57,974 nt of DNA from NCBI GenBank assembly GCA_043800905.1, contig JAZDMO010000003.1, forward strand, positions 1-57,974, given 5' to 3'. Made by a program: the position numbers and the translations under genes. The stretch is from Patescibacteria group bacterium. GTDB taxonomy: Bacteria > Patescibacteriota > Minisyncoccia > Phycocordibacterales > UBA12079. The notes beneath the pieces were generated by a model. The model had not been told where the DNA came from, did no database searches, and was given only the letters and a program-made list of their open reading frames with translations. Positions 2,941 to 57,377 of this stretch are shown piece after piece; positions within the stretch are counted from its first letter, which is position 1; each line of letters opens with the position of its first letter.

Positions 2941-3317
2941 TCTTTAAAAATAAAGAAAAAATGAACAAAAAAGTTGTATAATTCTGACGACCATGGGTTA
3001 AAGACAGAAACTCTGTTCATTTTTTCTGCTGGATTGCCACGAATAAATTTTTGCGAAAATTTATTCTCGCAAAGACGAAAAGCGAAACGTCTCTGCGAGG
3101 AAAGATTTTTTGATTTTTGACGAAAAATCAAAAAATCTTGACGTGGCAGTCCAGAGATTTTAAATTTTATGCTGGATTGCTTCGTAAACTCGCAATGACG
3201 TTTATTAGCTGGATTGCTACAGAATTTTTTAAAACAAAAAATTCTTCGCAATGACAACGGGATGCTGGACCTGCCTATGCCGGCAGGCAGGTTGCCACGC
3301 TATCGCTCGCAATGACG
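2941..3317. repeat. Repeat cluster A: about 100-bp inverted-repeat arm (2941-3040) plus five modular palindrome units
   Basis: Units by my reading: 3029-3077 (+), 3088-3154 (-), 3172-3200 (+, minimal, no cargo), 3209-3255 (+), 3265-3317 (+, with nested GC palindrome at 3270-3291). Confidence 0.85.
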
Positions 3318-3962: not shown

Positions 3963-4071
3963 CCTGCCTGCCCCCGCCTGCCGGCATGCAGGGGCAGGCA
4001 GGTCTAGTTTCTAACCGTCTCTGCGAGCTTGCGAAGCAGTCCAGTCTCGTACAATCACGAAGTGGTTTTTA
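3963..4071. repeat. Repeat cluster B: extended GC palindrome, a minimal (-) unit and a 27-nt junction module
   Basis: CCTGCCTGCCCC...GGGGCAGGCAGG at 3963-4003. CGTCTCTGCGAGCTTGCGAAGCAGTCCAG at 4016-4044. TCTCGTACAATCACGAAGTGGTTTTTA at 4045-4071. Confidence 0.8.
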
Positions 4072-4074
4072 AAA

Positions 4075-4362
4075 ATGGGTCTTAACGTCGGTTATGAACA
4101 AGATGGAAATGGAGAAGAGTATCTAAGACCGGCTGTTGTTCTAAAAAAATTTAATAAGAAAATATTTTTAGGAATTCCTTTAACAAAAATTAAAAAGGAT
4201 TTACCTTTTTATTATAATTTTGAGTTTAAAAAAATAAATAGTTCAGCCATTTTGTCTCAAATAAGATTGTTTGATTCAAAAAGATTAAAATTTAGATATG
4301 GGAAACTAAGTAAGTCTGATTTTGACAAAATAAAAGAAAAACTCATTGAATTACTTCAATAA
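4075..4362 (+). pseudogene. N-terminally truncated MazF/PemK-like toxin paralog
   Basis: Aligns with residues from LGLNIGYEQDG onward of the full-length paralogs at 7168 and 53230. The roughly 40 N-terminal residues are missing and repeat cluster B abuts the 5' end. Confidence 0.6.
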
Positions 4363-4491: not shown

Positions 4492-4625
4492 CTGGACCTG
4501 CCTGCCGGCAGGCAGGTTGCCACGCTATCGTTCGCAATGACGAAGAAACGGATTTTGCGAAGCAAAATCCGTTACGAAAAACTTTGTTTTTCGTCTTTGC
4601 GAGGAGCCTGCGACGTGGCAATCTA
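4492..4625. repeat. Composite C: inverted pair of modular units (134 bp) with a nested GC palindrome
   Basis: CTGGA[CCTGCCTGCCGGCAGGCAGG]TTGCCACGCTATCGTTCGCAATGACG, then two small hairpins, then CGTCTTTGCGAGGAGCCTGCGACGTGGCAATCTAG. Same architecture as the in-CDS copy at 14870-15001. Confidence 0.85.
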
Positions 4626-4655
4626 GAAATAAATTTTTATGTTAAAATATTAATA

Positions 4656-6669: not shown

Positions 6670-6935
6670 CTCTGGACTCCTCCCGTGGCGAAAAGTAAAA
6701 CTTTTCCGTCATTGCGAGAATAAATTTTCGCAAAAATTTATTCGTGGCAACCTGCCTGCCGGCAGGCAGGTCCAGCGTCTCGTCATTGCGAATAAGGTTT
6801 TTTGATTTTTCGTCAAAAATCAAAAAACCTTATGTGGCAATCCAGCAGAAAAAATGAAAAAAAGTTGTATAATTATGACGGTCGTCAGAATTATACAACT
6901 TTTTGGTTTGTTTTTTGTTTATTTTTGGATGCTTT
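6670..6935. repeat. Repeat cluster D: two (-) modular units, the GTTGTATAATT..AATTATACAAC palindrome, and an inverted-repeat arm matching 2941-3040
   Basis: Units 6707-6775 (with nested GC palindrome at 6751-6770) and 6781-6845. Palindrome at 6863-6900. 6834-6935 is the reverse complement of 2941-3040 except for one replaced 22-24 nt segment. Confidence 0.85.
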
Positions 6936-7167: not shown

Positions 7168-7575
7168 ATGAAATTAAGAGAAAACATTATAAAAAAAGAT
7201 TTTGATGTTTGGAATATTCAAAAGAAAGAAATTCACAATCACGGAAGAAACAGATTATATCGTTTGAGAGATATTTGGTGGTGTAATTTGGGATTGAATA
7301 TAGGGTATGAACAAGATGGTACCGGAGAAAACAATGGGCGACCAGTTTTGGTGTTAAAAGGGTTGAGTAGAAATATTTGTTTGGTAATTCCTTTAACAAC
7401 TTCAATTGAACAACATTTTATGAGAATACCAATTGGAGAGATAGATGGTAAAAATGCTTCTGGAATAATTTCGCAAATTCGTGTGATTGATACTAAGAGG
7501 TTTGTAAATAAAATAGGAAAGATAGATAAAAAAAGATTTGATATAATTAGAAAAGCCATCAAAAACTTAATTTGA
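7168..7575 (+). CDS. MazF/PemK-family endoribonuclease toxin-like protein; no adjacent antitoxin ORF
   Basis: GYEQDG..RPVLVL ... PLTTS ... ISQIRVIDTKRFVNKIG aligns with the GSEQGG.RPVLV ... QIRTIDKQRL motifs of MazF/EndoA. Confidence 0.75.
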   Translation: MKLRENIIKKDFDVWNIQKKEIHNHGRNRLYRLRDIWWCNLGLNIGYEQDGTGENNGRPVLVLKGLSRNICLVIPLTTSIEQHFMRIPIGEIDGKNASGIISQIRVIDTKRFVNKIGKIDKKRFDIIRKAIKNLI

Positions 7576-7678: not shown

Positions 7679-10600
7679 ATGAATTTTAATAAGCCAAACA
7701 AAAGAATAATTTTAACAAGTTTTTTGAGCTTGTTGATGCCTTTTTCTTTTGCTTCCGCTAAAAATTTTATTATTCATGATAGCAGTGATGCAAATAATAC
7801 TTATTTTTCTATAATCGGAACTACTGGTTATATTGGTTTAGGAGTAAGTAGTCCATCTACTCTTTTGCAATTAAAAAATAATAATTGGATTTCCGCGTTG
7901 GATGTTGCTGGGACGGGAGTGGTTAATATGTTTAAGGTTAATACTTCAAATCAAATTGAAGTAGGGGCTCCTCTTAATATTGGAAGTTTTGAATTTACTC
8001 CCGATTCTGGTTTGGTTACTTTTGCTGACATGGCTGTGACTTCCGCTTCTCCAATTGGAACTCCTGAAAGTTATGTTTTTAAATTGGATGGAGAAAATAT
8101 AATGTCTATTTATTCCGAATCTAATGGAGCAGGAGGAATTCAAAATAAAAGAGTAGGAATTGGAACCACAGCTCCCACACAAGCTCTCGAGGTTGCTGGA
8201 ACAATTTATTCATCTACAGGAGGATTTAAATTACCCGATGGAACCATTGTTGATTCTCAGTCTGATTTAACTCCAGTTACTCCCCATACCCAAATTTTGG
8301 TGGGAGATGCTTCTGATGTTGCAGTTGCCACTTCAACTTTGACCATTTTGGATTCTGGGAATGTTGGTATCGGGACGACGGCACCTACAAATAAATTACA
8401 TGTAAAAATTGATGCGGAAAGCACATTAGCTGTTTTGTTAGAAAATAATGGTACTGGTACGACTGCAAGAGATGTTCTTAAACTGGTTTCTTCTGGAACT
8501 GGTAATGGAACAAAAGTTTTTGAAGTTCAATCAAGCGGTGGAACAACTGAGGGTTTGGTTGTTATGGGTAGTGGCAACGTCGGCATCGGGACGACGGCAC
8601 CATCAGGAATTTTGCACACCTATGCATTAACAGGTAATAATAGTTTATATATTGATTCTTTTACAGATAATTCTTTTTTGCATTTGAGGTCAAATTTAGA
8701 TGGGTTAGGTGGAGAAGAAAGTGGAATTATATTTTCAGACGGAACAAGCGGTAAGTGGGAATTATACAAAAATTCAAACAATAATTTTTCTATTTATGAT
8801 TATACAAGAGCGGGAATATCTTTTGATATCGCTGATAACGGAGATATGTCTTTGATGCAATCTGGTGGCAACGTCGGGATTGGTACGACGAATCCAAGTC
8901 AGAAATTACACGTTAGTGGCGGAAGTGCTTTGTTTGCTTCTACAGAAGGAATTTTATTAAGTCCAGGTACGACAGCAGGAATTATTGGACATGATGGAAG
9001 TGCTTATAACGATTTGGAATTAAGGGCACAAGCTGGTACTCAGTTATATTTAAAATCCGACGGCAACGTCGGCATCGGGACGACGGGACCAGAGACAAAG
9101 TTTCAAGTTACAGGAACAGCAGGAACACAGGGTTCGGCTGGTCACGTTAGAAGAATAGTAAGTTTATATGATGATACAGCACAAGCTACTGGGGTCGGGT
9201 CGGGTATTGTTTTTGGCGGAAAATATACAGATGCAGGATTGTATACACAATTTGGAGGTATTTATGCACGAAAAGATAATGGGACAACTGGGAATTATGG
9301 AGCTTCATTAAACTTTTTTGCAAGAGAACACGGAGATGCTGTTTTGAATCCTGATATGGTAATTTCAAGTAGCGGCAACGTCGGCATTGGGACGACGGGG
9401 CCGACAACTGAGTTGATGGTACAAGGAGCAAACGGGATTACCCATAAAAGAAACACTGATAATGCTGGCGGGACATTGAAGCTGGGAGCAGGGACTGGAT
9501 TGGTTACATTGATGAGTTCTAACTTGGTTAATGGCGATTTGTCAATAAAAGATGATACAGGGGCAGTAATGGTTCATATCAAAGCAGACGGCAACGTCGG
9601 CATCGGGACGACGGGTCCTGGGTCTCCTTTAGAGGTTGCTACTGTGCCATCAACGGGAGAAAAATCATCAATTCAATTTGGGTCAGGGGGACATTTACTT
9701 TCAACATCAGTACCAATGGCAGGATTTTCTGGTGGGGCATATTTTAATTACAATGGTTCCTCGTATCAATGGATACCAGAAGATACTGGTGCCTCAACAT
9801 TTCAAATGTATAACGTGGCTAAAGGGGACTTTGCTATCACCACGAACAATGGGCTTACCGCAGGAGTTGCGTATACTCCGACTCCAAGATTGGTTATTAC
9901 ACCGACTGGAAATGTGGGATTGGGTGGAAGTATAACTAACTACTCTACTCTTGCAGGGTCAAGTCTAACAATAAATAACGGCAACGTCGGCATCGGAACG
10001 ACGAGTCCTGTAGGCAATCTTCATATAACTGATAGTGTTGGTGGTGGAAATTACCACTTAATTCTTGAAGACCCTGATGCAAGTGCAGATGAGAAGCAGT
10101 GGGTAATGAGAACAATTACAGGTCAATTAGATTTCAGAACTCGGACAGACAGTGGAACACAAAGCACGAAGTTGACAGTGTTAAACAACGGCAACGTCGG
10201 CATCGGGACGACGAGTCCTACAGATAAACTAGATGTAGCAGGAAATATAAGATTAACACATACCAGTCCTGACTTAGATTTTATGGCAAATGGAGGACAT
10301 TATAATTGGCGGATTGCGGCACAAGAAAATGTCAATAATGCTTTAGAAATCACACCATCAACTGCTGTTGATGGAAGCACTTTTTCAACTCCAGCTGTCA
10401 CAATTTTAAGCACCGGCAACGTCGGCATCGGAACAACTGCACCAAATTCTCAACTTCAGCTTACGCATGACACAACTACTATAACAACCGAAGCTGACTA
10501 CGCATTTAGTATTAAACCTGATTTGACAGCGGAGTTATTTATGGGAGTAAATACCACAGGCGGTTATAGTTTTATTCAATCATTCGACCCTGGTACAAAT

Positions 10601-13600
10601 TGGAATGGGAAACCTCTTATCTTAATGCCAAATGGTGGCAACATCGGCATCGGAACAACTGCACCTGGGGCGAAGTTACATATTTCTGGAGGTTCTGGAA
10701 TTATTGAAAATGCAGGGGTAGTGTCCTTAACACTTAAAGATTCCAGTAGTACTTCAATCCCAACCTTATATTTTGTCCAAGGAGCAACAACTCAAGCTTC
10801 AATTCAAGGCGGTACAGCAGTACAAGGACGACTCGATTTCAATACATATAACAATCCTAATACCATGACTTTGTTTAACGGCAACGTCGGCATCGGGACG
10901 ACGAATCCGGGTGCGAAGTTGGAAGTTAATGGTAAAGTTAAACTTACTACAGGAAATTCACTTCTATCTACTTATGTTGGAGACCTTGCTGAAACAGGAG
11001 GATATATGGAAACAAGTACTACAAATTTAAAATTTGTGACAAGAAATGGGCATATAGTTTTTGATACAACTGCAGGCAACGTCGGCATTGGGACGACGAA
11101 TCCTGGGGCGAAGTTGGAGGTAGCTGGGAATATTGAGCTTTCAGGAGCAAGTAGATACATAACTGTTGATGGAGGGAATCTATATTTAGATCCTAGTGAT
11201 GGTGTTGTAAATCTTTATGATAATGTTGATGATTTCGCATTGAATGTTTATAGTGGCTCTACCTTAAAGGCCAAAGTCAATTCAAATGGTAATAGTTATT
11301 TCAATGGAGGCAACGTCGGCATCGGAACAACAGCACCAGATGCGTTGTTAGATATATATAATGGAGCTTTGGTTAATAGAGCTTCTGCAGTTAATCATTA
11401 TAGAAACGTTCTTTCACAGTATCTTGGTGTCGGTAATCAAGTTGGAACTTTAAAAATAGTACTTCCAAAACAGTCAGATACTATGATAGACATAACAATA
11501 AAAGGTTATGATTATAGTGCTAATATCGGAGCTTGGGAAGTTAGAATAAGCGGTTATGTTTATTCTGGTACAGGTGGTTGGTATACACTTAATCATAAAG
11601 CACAAATTATCGGTAGCGCCCCATTTTCTAAAGTTCGTTTATCTTATGATGGCTCAAAGCCAATAATTCTTTTGGGCGATACTTCTACTGTTTGGTCTTA
11701 TAGTTCTATTGAAGTATCTGATGTCACTACTTCTTATGCAGGGATTACTGGTTGGGGGTCAGGGTGGACAGCTTCTTTAATTACCGATGAAACTGGTCTT
11801 ACTCTTAAAGCAACACCTTTGATTTCTACTTATACTACGGCGAGTGGCAACGTCGGCATCGGGACGACGGCACCGAATAGTAAGCTTACTGTTGGTTATG
11901 TTGGTTCTAATACAGCAAATGGATTAATTGGAAGTTTTTTCAACGGAGACGAAACAACTGTAAAAATATTAGGAACTGCTAATACAAATGATACTGGGGC
12001 TCATTTGCAGTTAATGGAAAATAATCCTGCTTTATATGGTTTTGATACTTGGTATGATACTGGCAACAATAAATTATTTATTGATTCATATACGAATGAT
12101 GTAAAAACAAATGTGATGGCGATGACAACAACTGGCAACGTCGGCATCGGGACGACAGCGCCGGGGGCGAAGCTGGATGTAAATGGAACTTCTTATTTAC
12201 GTGGTAAAACAACGATTAATTCCGCTGGTGAAATTGCTTCTGGTTATGCTCCTTTGCACATTAATCAAGCTGTTGCTAACTCGGTTGTCCTTGATGAAGA
12301 AACAACTACAGCGGGATTAAATATTCGTGGTTATTCTGATAATGTTAATTTACAATTAGGTGTTGGTGGTGTTTCTTTGGGATATAATTCATGGATACAA
12401 GCCTCTTATGATAATGGTGGTTCTTCAACTGGTACTGAGGCTTTATTATTAAATCCAGTTGGTGGCAACGTCGGGATTGGGACGACAGGACCTCAAGGAA
12501 TGTTACAAGTTGGTGCTCGCGCTCAAGCAACCCCCGCAACGTATCCAGGACGGATAATAGTAGGGGGAACCGCAGGATCTACACTTGAATCGGAGGGTGG
12601 TGTTGAGTTTCCAGTTGCCGACGATGGGTACTCATATAAGATTCAAGGACTTGCTTCAAGTGGATCAGTTTTGGCTTTCGGGAATAGGACCGCTTCTGCT
12701 ACATGGGTTGAACGAATGCGCATAAATCCCGTTGGTAACGTAGGTATTGGAACCACTGTACCAGACGAATCACTTGATGTTAATGGGGCTATACAAGCAA
12801 AGAGTGGTGCTCCCTCTGCCTTTAATGCTAATCATGTGGGTTATACTTTTTCTAGTGAGACGGATGGAGGAATGTTTAGCCCTGCTGATGGAAATATTGT
12901 ATTTGCATCAAATGGAACGGAGAGAATGAGAATAGATAATGCAGGTAATATCGGCATCGGGACGACGGCACCATCTACAAAATTCCAAGTAAAAGACGGT
13001 GGAGCAACCTTCAGTTTCAAAGAAGTCCCAATGATTTTTAACGCCGAAGCTTATGTTACTTCAGCAAATAGTATGTATAGCTCTTTGTATTTAGGTGATG
13101 CTTCTCATCCTCAATATGCAGGTTTAACTTATGATTCTAGCGGAAACGCTTTAAGTATTCTTTCCAATAATGCTGCTCGTATAACAATAAATAGTGCTGG
13201 AAATGTCGGCATCGGTACCACTGCACCATCTGCAAAACTCCAAGTCCAAGTAAGTAATAATGGATTAAATATAGTTAATGGATTAAGAAATGAAAATGCA
13301 ACAGAATCAGGTGGTAATGCTGTTGGAGTTGGATTTTTAAATGAGCCGAATGGAGATTGGTGGAAAGCGGCTATTGTTCACGAAAGAACTGGAGGGTATG
13401 GAATTGGTGATTTAAGATTTTTGGTAGATAGCGCCATAGATAGCAACAGTGTAGGCCTAACAGATACAAAAATGATTATTAAGAGCACTGGCAACGTCGG
13501 CATCGGAGTAGTCGATCCCGGATCTTTATTATCTCTTGCTAATAACAATTGGATTTCTGAAAAGAATGCCGCTGGTTCAGGTTATGTGAATATGTTTAAA

Positions 13601-15361
13601 GTAAATACTGATAATGAAATTGATGTAGGTACAACTTTGAACGCTGGAACTTTTGAATTTGCAGAAGACAGTGGAACAGTGACCGCTATGGATATGCCGG
13701 TTTCTTCATCGGCTAGCGCTGGAACAGACGAAGCCTATACTTTTAAAGTTGATGGAACAAATATTTTGACAGTTTTTGCTGAATCTAATGGAGCCGGAGG
13801 AATTCAAAATCCACGGGTGGGAATTGGTGATTCAACCCCTTCTTATCAGTTGGAACTTTCTACTAACTCCGCTGCCAAACCAACTTCTTCCTCTTGGACC
13901 GTTTCTTCCGATGAAAGATTAAAGGACGTTAATGAAGATTTCCCAAGAGGTTTGGAAGCTATTATGGGGTTGTATCCTATGTATATGAATTACAAGGTAG
14001 ATAATCCTTTGGGGCTTCCTTCGGATCAAGAGTTTATTGGTTTAGTTGCTCAAGATGTCGAAAAAGTAATTCCAGAAGCTGTGAAAACTGATGTAAATGG
14101 ATATTTAACGATTGATGCTGATCCAATCAAATGGACTATGATTAATGCGATTAAAGAATTAGGTTCAAAGATTAGTGGTTCTTTGGAAGAAAATTTTGGT
14201 ATTGGAACTGTTATTCCTTATCGTAAATTACAGGTTGAAGAAGCGGGAGAAAATCCTCAAATGAGAATTGCTTATGATGAAAGTAATTATGCAGAAATGC
14301 AAGTGAGTGCGGTGGGAGATTTAGCCTTAACTGCTCGAGGAGGAGATGTGAGATTGCCCGATGATAACTTAATGGTTTGTTCAGGTGGAGCTTGCCCTAC
14401 CAAAGCTTCTGCTTTGAATGGAACAGGAAATTTGGTAGTAGAAAATATTGCTTACGTTGCGGGAGCTTTGGGGATTGGAACAGAAAGTCCTGAAAGACCT
14501 TTGGATATTTATGAAACTCAATCTAACCCTCAGATGAGAATTTCTTATGATGATGATTTATATTCAGAATTTAAAGTTTCGGCGACTGGCGATTTGAGTA
14601 TTTCAGCTCAAGGAGGTGATGTGTCTGTTTTAGATGAAAATTTTAGAGTGTGTTCAGGTGAAGCTTGTCCATCAGAACTTTATAGTGCTAGTGGAAGAGG
14701 AAATTTGTTGGTAGAAAATAATATTTTAGCTTTGGGAAATGTTGGTATTAATACAGCCACTCCTGATTATACTTTGGATGTTAAAGGAACTTTACGAGCT
14801 TATGGAATTACCGATGCTTCTGATATTCGTTTGAAGAAAAATATTCGTTCACTTGTAGATACTTATAGTCTGGATTGCCACGCTATCGCTCGCAAAGACG
14901 AAGAACAAAGTTCTTCGTTAACGAATTTTGCTTTGCAAAATTCGTCTCTGCGAGCTGATAAGTCTACCTTAGGTATGGGAGCCTGCGACGTGGCAGTCCA
15001 GAAAAATACTGTTTTAGAAAATGTTATGAAATTAAGGGGAGTAAAATTTGAATGGAAAGATTCTGAGTTGGGAGTAGGGGATCAGATTGGTTTTATTGCT
15101 CAAGAAGTTGAAAAGGTTTATCCAGAATTAGTTTCCACAGATCAAGACGGATACAAGTCTGTTCAATACGGTAAAATGACCGCCGTGCTTGTGGGGGCAA
15201 TTCAAGAACTAACTAAATTATTTGAAGGGACTAAGATTGAATATTCAAGATTAGATAATCGAACTACTGAATTAGAAAAAGAAAATCAAGAATTGAAAAC
15301 AAAAACGGTTGAATTAGAAAACCGAATCAAAGCTCTTGAAAATATCTTCCGCCAAAAATAA
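7679..15361 (+). CDS. Giant (2560 aa) secreted GNVGIGTT-repeat tail-fibre-like protein with two peptidase-S74-type intramolecular-chaperone domains and a C-terminal coiled coil
   Basis: Signal-like N-terminus. More than 25 GN(V/I)GIGTT..P..KL.V repeats. S-D-x-R-L-K ... (I/V)G(F/L)(I/V)AQ(E/D)VEKV(Y/I)PE modules near nt 13904 and 14817. Heptad-like ELEKENQELKTKTVELENRIKALE at the end. Confidence 0.9.
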   Translation: MNFNKPNKRIILTSFLSLLMPFSFASAKNFIIHDSSDANNTYFSIIGTTGYIGLGVSSPSTLLQLKNNNWISALDVAGTGVVNMFKVNTSNQIEVGAPLNIGSFEFTPDSGLVTFADMAVTSASPIGTPESYVFKLDGENIMSIYSESNGAGGIQNKRVGIGTTAPTQALEVAGTIYSSTGGFKLPDGTIVDSQSDLTPVTPHTQILVGDASDVAVATSTLTILDSGNVGIGTTAPTNKLHVKIDAESTLAVLLENNGTGTTARDVLKLVSSGTGNGTKVFEVQSSGGTTEGLVVMGSGNVGIGTTAPSGILHTYALTGNNSLYIDSFTDNSFLHLRSNLDGLGGEESGIIFSDGTSGKWELYKNSNNNFSIYDYTRAGISFDIADNGDMSLMQSGGNVGIGTTNPSQKLHVSGGSALFASTEGILLSPGTTAGIIGHDGSAYNDLELRAQAGTQLYLKSDGNVGIGTTGPETKFQVTGTAGTQGSAGHVRRIVSLYDDTAQATGVGSGIVFGGKYTDAGLYTQFGGIYARKDNGTTGNYGASLNFFAREHGDAVLNPDMVISSSGNVGIGTTGPTTELMVQGANGITHKRNTDNAGGTLKLGAGTGLVTLMSSNLVNGDLSIKDDTGAVMVHIKADGNVGIGTTGPGSPLEVATVPSTGEKSSIQFGSGGHLLSTSVPMAGFSGGAYFNYNGSSYQWIPEDTGASTFQMYNVAKGDFAITTNNGLTAGVAYTPTPRLVITPTGNVGLGGSITNYSTLAGSSLTINNGNVGIGTTSPVGNLHITDSVGGGNYHLILEDPDASADEKQWVMRTITGQLDFRTRTDSGTQSTKLTVLNNGNVGIGTTSPTDKLDVAGNIRLTHTSPDLDFMANGGHYNWRIAAQENVNNALEITPSTAVDGSTFSTPAVTILSTGNVGIGTTAPNSQLQLTHDTTTITTEADYAFSIKPDLTAELFMGVNTTGGYSFIQSFDPGTNWNGKPLILMPNGGNIGIGTTAPGAKLHISGGSGIIENAGVVSLTLKDSSSTSIPTLYFVQGATTQASIQGGTAVQGRLDFNTYNNPNTMTLFNGNVGIGTTNPGAKLEVNGKVKLTTGNSLLSTYVGDLAETGGYMETSTTNLKFVTRNGHIVFDTTAGNVGIGTTNPGAKLEVAGNIELSGASRYITVDGGNLYLDPSDGVVNLYDNVDDFALNVYSGSTLKAKVNSNGNSYFNGGNVGIGTTAPDALLDIYNGALVNRASAVNHYRNVLSQYLGVGNQVGTLKIVLPKQSDTMIDITIKGYDYSANIGAWEVRISGYVYSGTGGWYTLNHKAQIIGSAPFSKVRLSYDGSKPIILLGDTSTVWSYSSIEVSDVTTSYAGITGWGSGWTASLITDETGLTLKATPLISTYTTASGNVGIGTTAPNSKLTVGYVGSNTANGLIGSFFNGDETTVKILGTANTNDTGAHLQLMENNPALYGFDTWYDTGNNKLFIDSYTNDVKTNVMAMTTTGNVGIGTTAPGAKLDVNGTSYLRGKTTINSAGEIASGYAPLHINQAVANSVVLDEETTTAGLNIRGYSDNVNLQLGVGGVSLGYNSWIQASYDNGGSSTGTEALLLNPVGGNVGIGTTGPQGMLQVGARAQATPATYPGRIIVGGTAGSTLESEGGVEFPVADDGYSYKIQGLASSGSVLAFGNRTASATWVERMRINPVGNVGIGTTVPDESLDVNGAIQAKSGAPSAFNANHVGYTFSSETDGGMFSPADGNIVFASNGTERMRIDNAGNIGIGTTAPSTKFQVKDGGATFSFKEVPMIFNAEAYVTSANSMYSSLYLGDASHPQYAGLTYDSSGNALSILSNNAARITINSAGNVGIGTTAPSAKLQVQVSNNGLNIVNGLRNENATESGGNAVGVGFLNEPNGDWWKAAIVHERTGGYGIGDLRFLVDSAIDSNSVGLTDTKMIIKSTGNVGIGVVDPGSLLSLANNNWISEKNAAGSGYVNMFKVNTDNEIDVGTTLNAGTFEFAEDSGTVTAMDMPVSSSASAGTDEAYTFKVDGTNILTVFAESNGAGGIQNPRVGIGDSTPSYQLELSTNSAAKPTSSSWTVSSDERLKDVNEDFPRGLEAIMGLYPMYMNYKVDNPLGLPSDQEFIGLVAQDVEKVIPEAVKTDVNGYLTIDADPIKWTMINAIKELGSKISGSLEENFGIGTVIPYRKLQVEEAGENPQMRIAYDESNYAEMQVSAVGDLALTARGGDVRLPDDNLMVCSGGACPTKASALNGTGNLVVENIAYVAGALGIGTESPERPLDIYETQSNPQMRISYDDDLYSEFKVSATGDLSISAQGGDVSVLDENFRVCSGEACPSELYSASGRGNLLVENNILALGNVGINTATPDYTLDVKGTLRAYGITDASDIRLKKNIRSLVDTYSLDCHAIARKDEEQSSSLTNFALQNSSLRADKSTLGMGACDVAVQKNTVLENVMKLRGVKFEWKDSELGVGDQIGFIAQEVEKVYPELVSTDQDGYKSVQYGKMTAVLVGAIQELTKLFEGTKIEYSRLDNRTTELEKENQELKTKTVELENRIKALENIFRQK
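8357..13513 (+). repeat. Dispersed coding 24-mer GGCAACGTCGGCATCGGGACGACG (GNVGIGTT) and near-identical variants
   Basis: Exact copies read at 8573, 9062, 9590, 10190, 10880 and 11846 (plus 117 and 356 in the upstream gene). At least 10 further copies show 1-4 differences (e.g. 9374, 9980, 10415, 11075, 11309, 12134, 12474, 12944, 13490). Confidence 0.85.
14870..15001. repeat. Composite E: inverted pair of modular units (132 bp, exactly 44 codons) in frame inside the giant CDS
   Basis: CTGGATTGCCACGCTATCGCTCGCAAAGACG, then hairpins ACGAAGAAC/GTTCTTCGT and ACGAATTTTGC/GCAAAATTCGT, then CGTCTCTGCGAG...GAGCCTGCGACGTGGCAGTCCAG. Starts on a codon boundary ((14870-7679) is divisible by 3). Confidence 0.85.
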
Positions 15362-15365
15362 AACC

Positions 15366-16193
15366 TTTTGGGGGTTTCGCCCCCAAAAATAGCAAAAATT
15401 AAAATGGCAAATAGAGAACCGTTATTAATAAATGAATATTATCACGCTTATAACCGTGGAGCCGATAAGCGAATTATTTTTGATGATGTTTTTGATATTT
15501 TAAGATTTCTGCAAAGTATGCAGGAATTTAACTCTGTAGAACCGATAGGTAGTATTTATGAAAAAAATTATCATAATAAAGAAGAGAATGTAAATTTTGG
15601 GGGTTTCGCCCCCAAAGCTTTTAAATCAGATAGGTTAGTTAAGATAGTCGCCTATTGTTTAAATCCGAATCATTTTCATTTGATATTAAGTCCGTTGGTA
15701 GAAAACGGGATTAGTGAATTTATGAAAAGACTAGGTGGTGGTTATACTACTTATTACAATATTAAAAATAATAGAAAAGGAGTATTATTTCAAGGAGTTT
15801 TCAAATCAAAACATATTGATTCTGACTCTTATCTTAGATTTTTGAGTGCTTATGTAAATTTAAATTTTAAAGTTCATAAAAAGTTTGAAAAAAATAATGG
15901 AAAAAACCAATCGGTTTTTAAATCAAGTTGGGATGAATATCTTAATGCAAAAATTATAAAGAAAAAAGGAACTAATGAACACAAAATTATAAACAACAAA
16001 GATGATATTTGCGATAAGTCAATGATTTTATCTCACTTTAATTCGATAGAAGAATATAAAAGATTTGCAATAGAATCATTAAGAGAAATTAAAAGGAAAA
16101 GATATAATGAAGATGATATAATTAAAGATGATTTTTCTTTGTAAGAAATCATCAAATTAATTTAATGATACTTGGGGATAGTATCCCCAAGTA
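15366..16193 (+). mobile_element. RAYT/IS200-like Y1 transposase unit 1 with flanking hairpins
   Basis: Left hairpin TTTTGGGGGTTTCGCCCCCAAAA at 15366-15389. The same hairpin occurs in frame inside the CDS at 15595-15616. A different right hairpin TACTTGGGGATAGTATCCCCAAGTA lies at 16169-16193. Confidence 0.5.
15404..16144 (+). CDS. Y1 HUH transposase-like protein (IS200/RAYT family)
   Basis: YHAYNRG N-terminal motif, HUH motif NPNHFHLIL, candidate catalytic Tyr in SAYVNLN. ATG at 15404; the TTG-started extension of ORF 15368 only reads through the left hairpin. Confidence 0.8.
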   Translation: MANREPLLINEYYHAYNRGADKRIIFDDVFDILRFLQSMQEFNSVEPIGSIYEKNYHNKEENVNFGGFAPKAFKSDRLVKIVAYCLNPNHFHLILSPLVENGISEFMKRLGGGYTTYYNIKNNRKGVLFQGVFKSKHIDSDSYLRFLSAYVNLNFKVHKKFEKNNGKNQSVFKSSWDEYLNAKIIKKKGTNEHKIINNKDDICDKSMILSHFNSIEEYKRFAIESLREIKRKRYNEDDIIKDDFSL

Positions 16194-19853: not shown

Positions 19854-20712
19854 CTGGATTGCCACAGAATTTTTTAAAACAAAAATTCTTCGCAATGACG
19901 GAAAGCGAAGCGTCTCTGCGAGATTAGATTTTTTAATAAAAATCTAATCGTAGCAGTCTAGCGTTTAATTTTTTGGATTACTTTGTGATTTCAAAAGTCT
20001 GGATTCCACCCAAGCCTGCCTGCCGGCAGGCAGGGCGGACAGGTGCCACACAAGGTTTTTTGATTTTTCGTCAAAAATCAAAAAACTGTATAATTATGAC
20101 GGTCGTCATAATTATACAGTTTTTTTTTTTTGCTGGATTGCCATAGAATTTTTTAAAACAAAAAATTCTTCGCAATGACGAAAAACGAAGCGTCTCTGCG
20201 AGATTAGATTTTTTAATAAAAATCTAATCGTGGCAGTCCAGAGATTTTAAATTTAGCACTGGATTGCCACGTCAAAAATTAAGGCTCAAAAGTTTTTTAA
20301 AACTTTTGAGCCTTAATTTTTTCCTCGCAATGACGAATCTTTGGTTCGTTACGGTCCGCTTAGGGCGGACCGTCTTTGCGAGGAACAAAATGTAATGGAG
20401 TGACGAAGCAATCCAGTCTTGCACAATCACGAAGTGGTTTTTATTTCTGGATTGCCACACCGAGCACCAAAAACTTTAATTAAAGTTTTTGGTGCTCGGT
20501 TCGCAATGACGGACAAAACGAACAAAATCTGGGTTGCCACCCCCCTCATCCAGAAAAGTATCGTTGATTGTCATCAACACCAAAGAGAATAAAGGATTTG
20601 TTTAATAATAAAATAGAAAAAGAGTATTATAAATAAAAATTTATTTATAATACTTTTCTGGATGAGGGGTCGCAATGACAAATGAATGTTGGATGAAGGG
20701 GTGGAAATCTAG
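19854..20712. repeat. Repeat array G: about 860 bp of intergenic DNA made almost entirely of modular palindrome units
   Basis: Units: 19854-19900 (+), 19911-19961 (-), degenerate 19998-20050, palindrome 20086-20119, 20133-20180 (+), 20191-20241 (-), 20259-20335 (+), 20371-20416 (-), 20447-20511 (+), 20529-20679 (+, 151 bp). 19854-19961 is nearly duplicated at 20133-20241. Confidence 0.9.
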
Positions 20713-24649: not shown

Positions 24650-24654
24650 AAGAA

Positions 24655-24827
24655 ACGAATTTTGGTTTTGCTAAAATTTGTCTTTGCGAGAAGGGATAAT
24701 TTAGTAACCCGGTTACTGAATAAAAACTAACACGGATGCCTAAAGAGATTTAAATTTATAAACTAAAGTAACCGGGTTACTAAATTATTACTTTCGTGGC
24801 AACCTGCCTGCCGGTAGGCAGGTCCAG
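24655..24827. repeat. Repeat H: long (-) modular unit with a nested GC palindrome, between rpiB and rpe
   Basis: ACGAATTTTGG..CTAAAATTTGT hairpin, TGTCTTTGCGAG, long stem GATAATTTAGTAACCCGGTTACT...AGTAACCGGGTTACTAAATTAT, then CGTGGCAA[CCTGCCTGCCGGTAGGCAGG]TCCAG. Confidence 0.75.
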
Positions 24828-26399: not shown

Positions 26400-27213
26400 T
26401 GCGGAGGTTGAACCTCCGCATTTTTAAATCTTTACTTATTTATTTAAATTTATTATGAAAAAACCTCCGTTTTTAAATGATCATATCTATCACATATATA
26501 ATCGTGGGGTAGAAAAAAGAGATGTTTTTATGGATGATCATGATTATTTTCAATTTATTCATGATTTGTTTGAATTTAATGATAAGAACCCCGTTAATAA
26601 ATTACAGGAAGACAATTTTTCAATAATATCTACGGAGGTTCAACCTCCGCAGATAAGAAGAAAGAGAAATAATGATCGAGAGTTATTGGTAGAAATATTA
26701 GCTTTTGTGTTGATGCCAAATCATTTTCACTTGTTATTAAAACAAAAAAATGATGATGGGGTTGTAAAGTTTATGCAAAAAATAGGAACAGGCTACACCA
26801 TGAGCTTTAATAAAAAATATGATAGAGTTGGAAGCTTGTTTCAGGGAAGATTTAAAGCTGTTTTAGTAGAAAGAGAAGATCATCTTCTTTTTCTTCCTAA
26901 CTATATTCATTTAAATCCCATCAAAATAAAAAGGGATTTTTCTGTTAATAAAAATTTAATTTCTGCAGTTAGTGATTTAGAATTTTTAGAAAAATATCGT
27001 TGGAGTAGTTTACCTGATTATCTTGGTAAAAAGAATTTTCCATCGGTTATTTCAAAAGAATTTTTATTAGAAATTATAGGGAATCCAAGAGAATATAGAA
27101 AAGAGTTAAAAACTTGGTTGAAAAAAAATTATGATTTTAAAGCTATATTTGATGAAATAGTGTAGAGAATATGATACATTTTAAGACCTTCGGAGGTTGA
27201 ACCTCCGAAGGTC
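26400..27213 (+). mobile_element. RAYT/IS200-like Y1 transposase unit 2 with flanking hairpins
   Basis: TGCGGAGGTTGAACCTCCGCA at 26400-26420 (left). ATCTACGGAGGTTCAACCTCCGCAGAT at 26629-26655 (in frame, inside the CDS). GACCTTCGGAGGTTGAACCTCCGAAGGTC at 27185-27213 (right). Confidence 0.55.
26455..27165 (+). CDS. Y1 HUH transposase-like protein (IS200/RAYT family), paralog of 15404-16144
   Basis: YHIYNRG, HUH motif MPNHFHLLL, YIHLNPIK candidate catalytic Tyr motif. Confidence 0.8.
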   Translation: MKKPPFLNDHIYHIYNRGVEKRDVFMDDHDYFQFIHDLFEFNDKNPVNKLQEDNFSIISTEVQPPQIRRKRNNDRELLVEILAFVLMPNHFHLLLKQKNDDGVVKFMQKIGTGYTMSFNKKYDRVGSLFQGRFKAVLVEREDHLLFLPNYIHLNPIKIKRDFSVNKNLISAVSDLEFLEKYRWSSLPDYLGKKNFPSVISKEFLLEIIGNPREYRKELKTWLKKNYDFKAIFDEIV

Positions 27214-27250: not shown

Positions 27251-28390
27251 ATGATTGAAAAAATGAAAAATAAAGAAAAACCTGTCTGTCAACGAGGTAG
27301 AAAAATATTTGTTGGAATGTCAGGCGGTGTGGACTCTTCTCTTACCGCGGCTTTGTTATTGAAAGAAGGTTATGATGTGACCGGTGTTTTCATTAAAGTT
27401 TGGCAACCAGATTTTGTAGAGTGTTCTTGGCGAGAGGATAGATTGGATGCTATGCGAGTGTGTGCTAAATTAGGTATTAATTTTTTGGATTTAGATTTGG
27501 AAGAAGTATACAAGAGAGAAGTTTTTGATTATATGATAGAAGAATACAAAAATGGCAGAACTCCTAATCCAGATGTGATGTGTAATAAGAAAATTAAATT
27601 CGGAGCTTTTTTGGATTTTGCTTTAAAAAATGGAGTGGATTTTGTGGCTACAGGTCATTATGTTCGTTTAGAAGATAAAAAACTTTTAGCTGGAATTGAT
27701 GAAAATAAAGATCAGTCATATTTTTTATGGACACTTACTCAAGAACAATTAAAACATTGTATTTTCCCGATTGGACAATATACCAAACCAGAGGTACGGA
27801 AATTAGCTAAAAAATTTGAACTTTCTACCGCCGATAAAAAAGACAGTCAGGGTTTGTGTTTTGTGGGAAAAGTAGATATGAAAGATTTTTTAGAAAGATT
27901 TATTCCACAAAAAAAGGGAGATGTTTTGAATGAAAAAGGAAAAGTCATCGGCCACCATGATGGTATCCACTATTTCACCTTAGGACAAAGGCATGGTTTT
28001 GAAATTATTGAAAAAGGAACAGAAGACAAACCTTATTATGTAGTGGCTAAAGATTTAGAAAAAAATATTTTAATTGTGTCTAATCAAGACAAACAAAACT
28101 TTACAGAAAATTTAAAAAGAAAAGAAATTAAATTAGAAAATATAAATTGGACTTTAGGTGAGAAACCAAATTTCTTCACTTCGTCTCTGCGAGGAGATCA
28201 CGACGAAGCAGTCCAGAAAAAATATCAAGCCAGAATAAGATACAGACAGCCTTTGCAAGAATGTGTTTTGGTTGAAAAAGACAGAATTTTTTCGGTTGTT
28301 TTTGATATTCCACAAAAAAACGTGGCTTCAGGACAATCTGTGGTAATTTATGATGAAGATATTTGTTTGGGGGGTGGGGTGATTGTTTAA
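27251..28390 (+). CDS. mnmA: tRNA 2-thiouridine(34) synthase MnmA
   Basis: PP-loop VGMSGGVDSS, DQSYFL, C-terminal RIRYRQ and LGGG motifs. Confidence 0.9.
   Translation: MIEKMKNKEKPVCQRGRKIFVGMSGGVDSSLTAALLLKEGYDVTGVFIKVWQPDFVECSWREDRLDAMRVCAKLGINFLDLDLEEVYKREVFDYMIEEYKNGRTPNPDVMCNKKIKFGAFLDFALKNGVDFVATGHYVRLEDKKLLAGIDENKDQSYFLWTLTQEQLKHCIFPIGQYTKPEVRKLAKKFELSTADKKDSQGLCFVGKVDMKDFLERFIPQKKGDVLNEKGKVIGHHDGIHYFTLGQRHGFEIIEKGTEDKPYYVVAKDLEKNILIVSNQDKQNFTENLKRKEIKLENINWTLGEKPNFFTSSLRGDHDEAVQKKYQARIRYRQPLQECVLVEKDRIFSVVFDIPQKNVASGQSVVIYDEDICLGGGVIV
28182..28216. repeat. Minimal (-) modular unit in frame inside mnmA
   Basis: CGTCTCTGCGAGGAGATCACGACGAAGCAGTCCAG, translated as SSLRGDHDEAVQ. Confidence 0.75.
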
Positions 28391-29909: not shown

Positions 29910-30290
29910 GTGAAAAACGAAAAACCGCAAGAAAAAGATAAAAAAGATTTAAGGTATCGAAGTTATGTTTTTAGTCTTGATATAATTTCTCTTTTAGAAA
30001 AATTACCTAAAAATTATATATATGAGATCCTAGGTAAACAGGTTTTAAGATCAGCTACTAGTATTGGGGCAAATATTGTAGAAGCTCAGGCTGGAAGTTC
30101 AAAAAAAGATTTTGTTCGTTTTTATCAAATTGCTCTTAAAAGTTGTAATGAAATTAAATATTGGTTGTCTATATTTAAAATAAAACAAAAAGATAATCTA
30201 AAAATTGAAGAATTGTTAAATGAAGCCATAGAGCTTGGCAATATTCTTGGAGCGAGTATAATAACTATGAAAAGTAAAAGAAAGCTTTAA
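29910..30290 (+). CDS. Four-helix-bundle protein (23S rRNA intervening-sequence protein family)
   Basis: GKQVLRSATSIGANIVEAQAGSSKKDFVRFYQIALKSCNEIKYWL is the signature of the family. GTG start. Confidence 0.8.
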   Translation: MKNEKPQEKDKKDLRYRSYVFSLDIISLLEKLPKNYIYEILGKQVLRSATSIGANIVEAQAGSSKKDFVRFYQIALKSCNEIKYWLSIFKIKQKDNLKIEELLNEAIELGNILGASIITMKSKRKL

Positions 30291-37277: not shown

Positions 37278-37409
37278 CGTCATTGCGAATTTACGAAGCA
37301 ATCTGCCTGCCGGCAGGCAGGTCCAGCGTTTTTTTAATTAAATCACTTCGTGATTTCACAAGTCTGGATTACCGCGTCGTTCCGTTACACTTCACTTTTC
37401 GCAATGACG
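37278..37409. repeat. Repeat cluster I: (-) minimal unit with nested GC palindrome, junction module, (+) unit
   Basis: CGTCATTGCGAATTTACGAAGCAAT[CTGCCTGCCGGCAGGCAGG]TCCAG at 37278-37326. AAATCACTTCGTGATTTCACAAGT at 37340-37363. CTGGATTACCGC...TTCGCAATGACG at 37364-37409. Confidence 0.8.
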
Positions 37410-52797: not shown

Positions 52798-52848
52798 CGT
52801 CATTGCGAGCCTGCCTGCCGGCAGACAGGCTTCAGCGAAGCAATCCAG
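52798..52848. repeat. Repeat J: (-) modular unit carrying the GC palindrome as its cargo
   Basis: CGTCATTGCGAG[CCTGCCTGCCGGCAGACAGG]CTTCAGCGAAGCAATCCAG. Confidence 0.8.
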
Positions 52849-53119: not shown

Positions 53120-53229
53120 TTTTGCCTCCTTTTCTGTTATGTGTTTCTGATAATAGTATACATAAAAGAATACAATTATCAATATATATAAAATATCAAA
53201 AAATAATACTTTTTGTTATACTTTGTAAT

Positions 53230-53646
53230 ATGAATTTAATGAAAAAAGAATCAAAAAATTTTGACGATTGGAATAATATAAAAAAGAAGATAGATTTTGA
53301 AGAATATAAAGATATCCTGCCTAAAAATAGAGAAATATGGTGGTCTTCGTTAGGATTAAACATTGGGGTTGAAGCAGATGGAAAAAATGAAAATTATGAA
53401 AGACCGGTTTTAATTTTGAAAGTTTTTAATAGAGAATGTTTTCTAGGCGTTCCGATAACTAGTATTGATAAAAGTAATAAGAAGTATTATTTTCCTATCT
53501 TATATAAAGATTTAAAGTCTTTTGCAGTTTTATCACAAATAAAGCTTTTTAGTACAAAAAGATTGTCTCGTATGATTTACAAAATAGATAGTAAAAATTT
53601 TATAGAATTGAAAAAAGAATTAACAAAAATAGCTGGTTTAAAATAA
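53230..53646 (+). CDS. MazF/PemK-family toxin-like protein; no adjacent antitoxin ORF
   Basis: Paralog of 7168-7575 (EIWWSSLGLNIGVEADG..RPVLILK...VPITS...LSQIKLFSTKRL). ATG at 53230. Confidence 0.75.
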   Translation: MNLMKKESKNFDDWNNIKKKIDFEEYKDILPKNREIWWSSLGLNIGVEADGKNENYERPVLILKVFNRECFLGVPITSIDKSNKKYYFPILYKDLKSFAVLSQIKLFSTKRLSRMIYKIDSKNFIELKKELTKIAGLK

Positions 53647-56549: not shown

Positions 56550-57377
56550 TTAAAATGGGCTTTTAATATTTTTTAATAAAGGATTGGTCACTTGAGTATA
56601 AATTTGGGTTGTTCTTATATTACTATGTCCTAACAATTCTTGCACATATCTAACATCAACTCCGTTTTCTAACAAGTGAGTAGCAAAACTATGTCTAAGT
56701 GAGTGAAAGGTGGCGTCTTTTTTAATTTTAGATTTTTCTAAAGATTTTTTAAAAATTTCTTGAAAAGAACGAGTTGTTAATTTTCCTCCACGGTTAGATT
56801 CAAAAACGATGTCATCGGCTTGTTTATTAAAAATAATGTTTTGTATGTCGGTTGATAATTTTTGAGAAAAAGTAGTGATTCTATCTTTTTTACCTTTTGC
56901 ATTTTTAATATGAACTATATTTTCTTTTAAATTTATATCTTTTACTTTTAAATTTTGAATTTCACTAATTCTTAAACCTCCGGCATAGGCTAGAGCAATA
57001 GCTGTCCGGTATTTTATATTTGAGGTATTTCCTAAAATTTCTTTTATTTCTTCTCTTGTTAAAACAATAGGTAGTTTTTTATTTCTTTTTGAAAATTTTA
57101 AATCAATTTTTCCGTTATCTTTTAATATTTCTTTATAAAAAAATTTAATTGAATTTAGAGCCAGATTTACTGTTTGAGGAGATTGTTTCTTTTCAAATTT
57201 TTCTAATAAAAAATTCTCAATGGCTTCTTTTTTGTTTTTAATATTTCTCTTTTTAGAGAAAATTAAAAACTGTTTGATATATAATAAGTAAGATTTTATA
57301 GTTTTAGGACTATAATTTCTTAATTTTAATAAATTTTTAGTTTGTTTTAATAATTTATCCATGATAAAATTATTCAA
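56550..57377 (-). CDS. Tyrosine recombinase / integrase (XerC/XerD-like)
   Basis: SAM-like N-domain. Catalytic ARG ... HSLRHSFATHLL ... LLGHSNIRTTQIYTQV. Confidence 0.85.
   Translation of the reverse strand: MNNFIMDKLLKQTKNLLKLRNYSPKTIKSYLLYIKQFLIFSKKRNIKNKKEAIENFLLEKFEKKQSPQTVNLALNSIKFFYKEILKDNGKIDLKFSKRNKKLPIVLTREEIKEILGNTSNIKYRTAIALAYAGGLRISEIQNLKVKDINLKENIVHIKNAKGKKDRITTFSQKLSTDIQNIIFNKQADDIVFESNRGGKLTTRSFQEIFKKSLEKSKIKKDATFHSLRHSFATHLLENGVDVRYVQELLGHSNIRTTQIYTQVTNPLLKNIKSPF

Follow-up and report, generated by a model that had tools for sequence, protein, structure and literature searches.

What are the short palindromic units packed into one genome segment of a Patescibacteria group bacterium, and how do they spread? 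The segment comprises 57,974 nt (contig JAZDMO010000003.1; 33% G+C) and is referred to here as the window. The original prediction described its units as fixed termini around hypervariable cargo, a family said not to fit classical REP (repetitive extragenic palindromic) elements and to be possibly uncharacterised. This part of the prediction has to be replaced: tag, tail, dimers, and intragenic copies of the units, and in part the foot, match the CGTC-tagged REPs described in 2013 (PMC3733652). We conclude that the units are very probably REP-type elements of the CGTC-tagged superfamily.

A fixed frame shared by 25 units

The two terminal 12-mers that make up the frame, CTGGATTGCCAC and CTCGCAATGACG, occur in the window 20 and 26 times at up to two mismatches, versus 1.8 and 1.2 matches expected. 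None of 100 shuffles reaches either count; the fixed termini, as predicted, are thus enriched far above shuffled sequence. Both frame halves are present in 25 units, the number and places originally given, which lie at ten places over 50 kb of the window. Frame remnants are found at 20000-20048 and 20701-20712. The units and associated features are listed below, written CGTC end first and with strand relative to the window; GC palindrome denotes the GC-rich 20-nt palindrome CCTGCCTGCCGGCAGGCAGG.

3029-3077, - strand: unit with 25-nt AT-rich hairpin middle (z -4.7); left half of tags-inside pair 3029-3154
3088-3154, + strand: B-type unit (CGTCTCTGCGAG..GCAGTCCAG) with 43-nt hairpin middle, loop GACG (z -7.4)
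3172-3200, - strand: minimal 29-nt unit CGTCATTGCGAG-TTTAC-GAAGCAATCCAG
3209-3256, - strand: unit with TGTC tag and 24-nt hairpin middle of the same kind as at 19866 and 20145
3265-3317, - strand: unit whose short middle reads CGATAGC; its tail contains a nested GC palindrome (GCAA^TCCAG)
4016-4044, + strand: minimal B-type unit; a GC palindrome nested in itself precedes it (3963-4002)
4492-4542, - strand: unit with tail-nested GC palindrome, forming the left half of pair 4492-4626 (49-nt spacer, two hairpins)
4592-4626, + strand: unit whose middle, GAGCCTGCGAC, closely resembles GAGCCCTTGCGAC, the long-type middle of Bradyrhizobium
6707-6775, + strand: unit with 25-nt hairpin middle and GC palindrome in the tail
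6781-6845, + strand: unit with 41-nt hairpin middle, a compensated, flipped copy of the 3102 middle (z -9.2)
14870-15001: tags-inside pair, in frame inside ORF (open reading frame) 7679-15361; units 14870-14900 (-) and 14943-15001 (+)
19854-19961: tags-inside A+B pair with 10-nt spacer GAAAGCGAAG; units 19854-19900 (-) and 19911-19961 (+)
20000-20130: degenerate mosaic; GC palindrome enclosed by what is left of a frame, 3102-type hairpin lacking a frame, and 46-nt palindrome resembling a terminator (centre GACGGTCGTC)
20133-20241: tags-inside A+B pair, 91% identical to 19854-19961; four-way cloverleaf (dG -31.6, z -10.4)
20259-20416: tags-inside pair of units 20259-20335 (-, 53-nt hairpin middle) and 20371-20416 (+, non-hairpin middle) with GC-hairpin spacer
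20447-20511, - strand: unit whose middle is a 42-nt perfect palindrome (z -10.4)
20529-20712, - strand: unit 20529-20680 with TGTC tag, 128-nt middle, and 20-bp closing stem (z -7.4), with truncated partner tail 20701-20712
24654-24827, + strand: unit 24679-24827 with 125-nt middle and tail-nested GC palindrome; a preceding spacer-type hairpin overlaps its tag
28182-28216, + strand: B-type unit in frame in mnmA, encoding SSLRGDHDEAVQ
37278-37409: tags-outside pair of units 37278-37326 (+, tail-nested GC palindrome) and 37364-37409 (-, middle not a hairpin)
52798-52848, + strand: unit with GC palindrome in the middle (loop) position

The frame is of the ATTGCGAG type and the unit consensus reads CGTC-(A/T)(T/C)TGCGA(G/A)-[middle]-G(T/A)(G/A)GCA(A/G)TCCAG. 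Of the 25 units, 22 have the tag CGTC and three TGTC; 23 have the tail CCAG and two CTAG. No variation is seen at head positions 2-4 and 7-11 or at most tail positions. Pairing between the two halves of the frame yields a 5-bp foot stem (ATTGC/GCAAT). Within this foot, the pair between head position 6 and tail position 7 covaries, being T-A in 19 units and C-G in six without a single mismatch, although the six C-G units form one subfamily and the covariation may therefore reflect a single event. At stem position 1, 14 units have A-T and 11 have T.T, while position 2 is paired in all 25. In minimum-energy folds of single units, tag and tail remain unpaired and the foot closes the structure, which continues through a 3+3 internal loop into a middle of 5-128 nt. 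The units themselves lack T tracts. Xer/dif-like and CRISPR-like readings of this layout were rejected in view of spacing, density, and the absence of regular arrays.

For MnmA and the Y1 proteins of the window, the best relatives that carry a name belong to Patescibacteria ('Candidatus Pacebacteria'); two window proteins have no exact-protein database record, and a literature search with sequence strings returned only unrelated primers.

Assignment to the CGTC-tagged REPs and spread over phyla

Most REPs belong to a GTAG-tagged or a CGTC-tagged superfamily (Di Nocera, De Gregorio and Rocco 2013; BMC Genomics 14:522, PMC3733652). CGTC REPs display an unpaired CGTC tag, sometimes TGTC or CCTC, stems that start with A-T, and an unpaired tail fitting CCA; dimers and intragenic copies are frequent or present, and no transposase gene is flanked by them (PMC3733652). 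Neisseria dRS3 (CGTC-1) and Rickettsia RPE-4/RPE-6 are members (PMC3733652). The window units share the CGTC/TGTC tag, in part the AT(T) start of the foot, the CCA(G) tail, inverted pairs, and heterodimers, together with in-frame intragenic copies, a patchy spread over phyla, and the lack of a flanking transposase gene. By our own back-translation, which is not part of the paper, the published CGTC-3 peptide VIAGLDPAIH yields an ATTGC...GCAAT foot followed by a CCA tail.

The original prediction also suspected that the family is widespread, and the identical frame is indeed present in many phyla and in viral contigs. In a pattern scan (one genome per species; at least 119 stretches), the matches listed include Alphaproteobacteria (Bradyrhizobium, sphingomonads, Methylobacterium, Rickettsiales), Gammaproteobacteria (Legionellales, Coxiellaceae, Solimonas), the betaproteobacterium Azoarcus, Acidobacteriota, Bacteroidales, Elusimicrobium, Melainabacteria, Chitinispirillales, and metagenome-assembled genomes of Bacillota and Parcubacteria. 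Among these listed matches, most middles are mini-hairpins of the GCGAAGC type, small hairpins of other kinds occur as well, a Rickettsia endosymbiont also carries an AT-rich hairpin middle, and units mostly form tags-outside pairs. A metagenome scan for longer middles recovered the frame around many unrelated, mostly hairpin middles on contigs of 32-69% G+C. The frame is present in viral contigs too, where many of the matches listed are related HK97/GTA-like (gene transfer agent-like) head-tail clusters. Thus, the principle of a fixed frame with a free but structured middle, proposed for the window, is real here and general to this CGTC branch, of which the window from the candidate phyla radiation (CPR) is an extreme, AT-rich form. 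For a GC-rich soil subfamily, an RNAalifold consensus suffered from indels in the variable apex and, with only two compensated pairs recovered, was not used.

At IMG/VR loci L245-L324, the frame occupies syntenic intergenic positions in HK97/GTA-like clusters (portal, capsid, tail tube).

Middle segments and nested palindromes

Middles of at least 22 nt (n=18) were folded against 200 dinucleotide shuffles each. Thirteen fold far better than their shuffles (z -3.2 to -10.4; equalled by 0-1 of 200), and one further long middle is marginal (z -2.2). The claim that the cargo is always self-complementary consequently stands for 13 of the 18 long middles and fails for units 14943, 20371, 37364, and 28182, whose middles are not hairpins. 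Nor are the cargos all unrelated to each other, as had been stated: five types recur two to three times in the window, exclusively inside frames, and AT-rich middles are absent outside frames within the window. The individual structures picked out originally were all recovered on re-reading, namely the 29-nt minimal unit at 3172-3200, the longest unit (152 nt, 20529-20680), the 42-nt perfect palindrome (20459-20500), the 20-bp stem (20542/20650), and the compensatory change between AAGA..TCTT in the 3102 middle and AAGG..CCTT in the 6794 middle. For one AT-rich middle, the orientation within the frame is reversed: the loop reads GACG at 3119 and CGTC at 6811.

A second palindrome family is nested in the units. 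The GC palindrome CCTGCCTGCCGGCAGGCAGG has seven copies in the window at up to three mismatches (3963-4002, 4497-4516, 6751-6770, 20015-20034, 24803-24822, 37302-37321, and 52810-52829) as well as one with a gap (3270-3291). Its sites are unit tails (GCAA^TCCAG), in one case a loop, and in one case another copy of itself. In the relatives' loci L152 (988-6823), L242, and L243, the same palindrome stands free; being free there and nested here, it is an independent element that nests in units.

This independence, with copies both free and at two defined positions inside units, and the flipped middle would suit a frame that serves as a landing or recombination site, at which a site-specific enzyme (attC-, IS110/bridge-RNA- or Xer-like) inserts hairpin cargos into the loop of a CGTC hairpin already in place. 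A Xer-like recombinase of 275 aa is encoded at 56550-57377. Neisseria dRS3 is an integration target of filamentous prophages that use an IS110-type enzyme, and IS110-family elements often target REPs. We nevertheless consider insertion into the loop improbable: AT-rich middles never occur outside frames in the window, whole units recur together with their middles, and orthologous sites differ by whole units or pairs rather than by middles. Moreover, the window holds no integron integrase, cassette context, or IS110 gene, which also speaks against the attC-like reading raised originally, and some 25 Xer sites in 58 kb are hard to square with chromosome stability.

Inverted pairs and alternating arrays

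Units are arranged in arrays of alternating orientation that resemble bacterial interspersed mosaic elements (BIMEs), with six tags-inside and four tags-outside pairs. Tags-inside spacers measure 10 nt, or 35-49 nt with hairpins of their own, and a conserved 17-nt spacer is common to two of the four tags-outside pairs. Tags-inside pairs are thus common here, in contrast to the published families, in which tags-outside dimers (HH) predominate and tags-inside dimers (TT) are rare (PMC3733652). Pairs display 12-bp inverted termini, and their outer stem holds a G-T (G-U) pair on the top strand. Folding of four inverted pairs yields four-way cloverleaves, with base pairing between the frames of the two units (z -8 to -10). 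This single-element fold bears out the proposal of pairs resembling REPINs (REP doublets forming hairpins).

Most clusters lie between co-directional genes, directly past stop codons. With the very stable folds, the G-T (G-U) pair of the outer stem on the top strand, and an associated 46-nt palindrome that is terminator-like, this placement raises the alternative that units are retained for an RNA hairpin function (termination, stabilisation of mRNA 3' ends, or processing), and that selection rather than transposition accounts for their copy number. Di Nocera et al. indeed favour RNA roles for many REPs (PMC3733652). However, the units are oriented almost evenly (13 + and 12 -) although nearly all window genes lie on the + strand, they are inserted in frame inside two genes, and they lack T tracts. 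A generic hairpin role also leaves a 21-nt frame that is identical across phyla unexplained. Finally, Rfam 15 returned no match in the window at gathering score and only generic hairpin (miRNA-precursor) noise below threshold. Maintenance as RNA hairpins is therefore an unlikely account of the units.

Two further modules accompany the clusters. The 46-nt palindrome is AT-rich, terminator-like on both strands, and carries at its centre ATGACGGTCGTCAT, that is, two facing CGTC motifs; it occurs at 6859-6909 and 20080-20130 and in part at 2968-3018, always adjoining CGTC clusters. Some units have a conserved module, TCT(C/T)G(T/C)ACAATCACGAAGTGGTTTTT, directly next to their CCAG tail (4045-4070 and 20417-20446), with inverted copies near 19975-19999 and 37340-37363.

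Whole units are present or absent at orthologous sites

Filled and empty sites were compared at mnmA, at a Peptidase_S74 domain, and at the rpiB-rpe spacer, the presence/absence check suggested with the original prediction. At these orthologous sites, whole units and pairs are present or absent, not middles. The unit at 28182-28216 adds 13 residues (FFTSSLRGDHDEAVQ) to MnmA and is found in two of 120 MnmA homologues. In the other carrier, L120, 34 of its 35 nt are identical, while flanking coding DNA is 48-70% identical; this comparison of two sequences points to constraint on the frame. The syntenic locus L121 (MnmA 63% identical) carries a different A+B CGTC pair about 25 codons upstream in mnmA. 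The pair at 14870-15001 (132 bp, 44 codons) interrupts the Peptidase_S74 domain of ORF 7679-15361, and its excision in silico converts a profile match at 14-57 (52.5 bits) into a contiguous one at 1-57 (60.3 bits). The inserts of 13 codons in MnmA and 44 codons in the S74 protein are predicted to be translated as tolerated peptide segments. Outside genes, the rpiB-rpe spacer measures 205 bp here, with a 149-nt unit, versus 34 bp in the syntenic locus L242. The CGTC frame is absent from the syntenic loci L242 (20.7 kb) and L243 (14.3 kb).

The two 108-109-bp pairs that lie 280 bp apart and are 91% identical, along with several remnants, might recall an ordinary decaying repeat that arose by local duplication without any propagation mechanism. 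We give this idea almost no credence. Units occupy ten separate places over 50 kb and the inside of two genes, their frame is conserved across phyla, the foot covaries, and orthologous sites are empty in relatives; the dispersed, polymorphic copies already contradict local duplication.

In mnmA, variation is not restricted to the window insert. In the 120-homologue alignment, a hot spot about 25 codons upstream of it holds palindrome-encoded peptides that differ between CPR lineages (VEVQPPQVE, SREVRPPEVE, TTWKPGFQVE, or a whole CGTC pair), located at 935-965 in L120, 10830-10955 in L121, and 11580 in L242. A second variable site downstream encodes SPNLSDGQGK or DPKSEIGQEK.

The Y1 genes of the window own a different hairpin

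Two Y1 genes, 15404-16144 and 26455-27165, encode the only HUH enzymes in the window. Both proteins display an HUH motif (NHFHL) and a YxxxN tyrosine motif and match Y1_Tnp, with a REP_Tyr_transpos match (NCBIfam) below cut-off; a PDB sequence search with the second protein gave no match. The first gene lies 400 bp downstream of the pair 14870-15001. Both had been proposed to act on the CGTC units, as would REP-associated tyrosine transposases (RAYTs), but the hairpins at their own loci point elsewhere. Gene 26455-27165 is flanked on both sides by the hairpin GGAGGTTSAACCTCC (26403-27206), and gene 15404-16144 by TTGGGGGTTTCGCCCCCAA upstream and the variant ACTTGGGGATAGTATCCCCAAGT downstream (15367-16192). 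Further, each gene carries its upstream hairpin in frame, between the N-terminal YHxYNRG and the HUH motif. This family has more than 7800 members in Patescibacteria, in which the in-frame site is kept as xEV(Q/E)Pxx and neighbouring residues preserve the palindrome.

Orthologues of the second gene are located between tkt and mnmA (tkt-Y1-mnmA) in L242 and L243, whereas L121 has none at this position. Between lineages, flanking and internal hairpins change together, to CCGGAGG... in L242 and TACGAGG... in L244. The Y1-locus hairpins of relatives are located as follows.

L242, 9858-19993: nine Y1-type hairpins in 20.7 kb, one inside mnmA
L243, 3540-4272: Y1-locus hairpins
L244, 9949-10756: Y1-locus hairpins

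Since each gene is flanked by its own hairpin, following the logic of a REPtron, that hairpin rather than the CGTC unit would be the substrate of these enzymes. The covariation of hairpin and gene in orthologues, the nine such hairpins of L242 next to no CGTC frame, and the CGTC pair of L121 at a locus from which the gene is missing all agree with this cognate-REP rule. Judged from these sequences, the two window Y1 proteins are unlikely mobilisers of the CGTC units, and we see only a slim chance for them.

The Y1 locus also resembles a REPtron whose REP likewise sits inside the transposase gene.

A proposed mechanism of spread

For the window as a whole, we lean towards CGTC-superfamily REPs spread in trans by single-strand HUH/Y1 machinery; this is a holistic judgement in which the secure classification weighs more than the inferred mechanism. 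The mechanism itself, a non-autonomous single-strand hairpin element, we put forward tentatively, at rather less than an even chance. Units would multiply within the genome singly or as inverted pairs in the manner of REPINs and BIMEs. Tag, foot, and tail would be the part that the propagating machinery reads, most likely an HUH/Y1 enzyme of the RAYT type that acts on single-stranded DNA (ssDNA) in trans and is encoded elsewhere in the genome or has been lost. The apex would not be read and would consequently be free to drift, to be palindrome-corrected, to flip, and to receive mini-palindromes as 'cargo'. Mobilisation in trans by some HUH enzyme is suggested by analogy with RAYT systems. The sole positive link between a CGTC REP and a RAYT is indirect and comes from Neisseria, where the REPIN with seed ATTCCCGCGCAGGCGGGAATC (dRS3, CGTC-1) decays where the Group 2 RAYT is frameshifted (bioRxiv 10.1101/2021.07.10.451892).

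Several observations weigh against spread of CGTC REPs by such an enzyme. Stem and loop sizes (5-bp foot, 5-128-nt middle) lie outside the four published families CGTC-1 to -4, with their perfect 8-9-bp stems and 4-5-nt loops, although variable loops are recorded in Bradyrhizobium, K. olearia, and M. prima and bulged members were possibly missed (PMC3733652). No target-site duplication or excision junction is definable at the mnmA and S74 sites. Both local Y1 genes of the 58-kb window are flanked by non-CGTC hairpins, and the syntenic 20.7-kb and 14.3-kb loci contain Y1 orthologues without a CGTC frame. A tblastn search with both Y1 proteins against 1.54 Mb of CGTC-bearing loci and a CPR Y1-family profile run against 4189 ORFs near units (359 loci) gave no match, and the 2013 survey reports no Y1 gene flanked by CGTC units either (PMC3733652). 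Clustering of ORFs within 1.5 kb of units at the 359 loci returned HK97/GTA-like head-tail genes and an ABC transporter, and no recombinase. Copy number and gene set as given here refer to the 58 kb of the host genome that the window covers.

A bolder extension, to which we assign a small probability, would make the CGTC frame a cross-phylum docking module for an ssDNA enzyme and the CPR hairpin apex a preferred entry point for mini-palindromes. If so, the units would be 'Russian dolls' of nested elements, with in-frame copies in genes of essential proteins as well, and a CPR genome of about a thousand genes would expose the CGTC mobiliser to phylogenetic profiling.

The identity of the units matters beyond this window. 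CGTC REPs have been orphans since 2013; they are widespread, with symbionts as well as pathogens (Neisseria, Rickettsia) among their hosts, and no enzyme is accepted as mobilising them. A dense, evidently polymorphic population in a minimal CPR genome extends their host range to Patescibacteria. The confinement of constraint to tag, foot, and tail indicates what any enzyme would have to read, and the CPR host offers a very small gene set in which to search for it. In-frame copies in mnmA and in a tail-fibre-like protein suggest that streamlined genomes tolerate selfish palindromes in essential genes, and they may account for spurious small ORFs as well as for unusual length differences within CPR protein families.

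Other features of the window

PemK/MazF-like toxin genes at 4075-4362, 7168-7575, and 53122-53646 each lie downstream of a CGTC cluster; this proximity, with a roughly estimated probability of about 1 in 100, may be due to chance. Between frr and an M50 protease gene lies a gene (29910-30290) for a 23S-rRNA-intervening-sequence (four-helix-bundle) protein. This gene is missing from the same position in the syntenic loci L242 and L243, and its flanks contain neither CGTC units nor any other repeat. The coding repeat GGCAACGTCGGCATCGGGACGAC (GNVGIGTT) occurs in about 22 copies with a spacing of 195-540 nt at 115-534 and 8340-13506, within ORF 8-610 and the giant ORF 7679-15361 (2560 aa, S74 C-terminus).

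Comparison with known systems

REPIN-RAYT systems and BIMEs (Bertels and Rainey; E. coli TnpA-REP) share with the units inverted pairs of about 110-160 nt that fold into one structure, alternating arrays, conserved spacers, and conserved ends around a freer interior. They differ in that no RAYT is flanked by the window units within 58 kb, where the RAYT-like genes own another cognate hairpin, and in the tag, which is CGTC here and not GTAG. Rickettsia palindromic elements (RPEs) likewise lie in frame inside protein-coding genes, where they are tolerated as additional peptide segments, yet RPE-1 is longer and unrelated in sequence. Integron attC sites, which are recognised as folded ssDNA, have conserved outer cores around an imperfect palindrome that is free in length and sequence. 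In contrast, the window units are dispersed and stacked without intervening genes, their termini do not fit the R''/R' core RYYYAAC/GTTRRRY, and the only tyrosine recombinase of the window is the 275-aa Xer-like protein 36 kb away. The 12-bp inverted termini of the pairs recall miniature inverted-repeat transposable elements (MITEs); a target-site duplication is not definable at the mnmA and S74 sites, and the window contains no related insertion sequence. Small dispersed repeats (SDRs) of Nostoc and other cyanobacteria, reportedly tiny hairpins nested in one another and in other repeats with the hairpin preserved (Elhai et al. 2008), are unrelated in sequence, and nesting rules are seen here in a handful of cases.

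The closest relatives remain the CGTC-tagged REPs, from which the window units differ by the frequency of tags-inside pairs, by a host phylum, Patescibacteria, that was not part of the 2013 survey, and by another palindrome family nested within them. New to this superfamily are the host phylum, the scale of the variable middle, the nested palindrome, the BIME-like alternation, and in-frame gene insertions with demonstrable empty sites.

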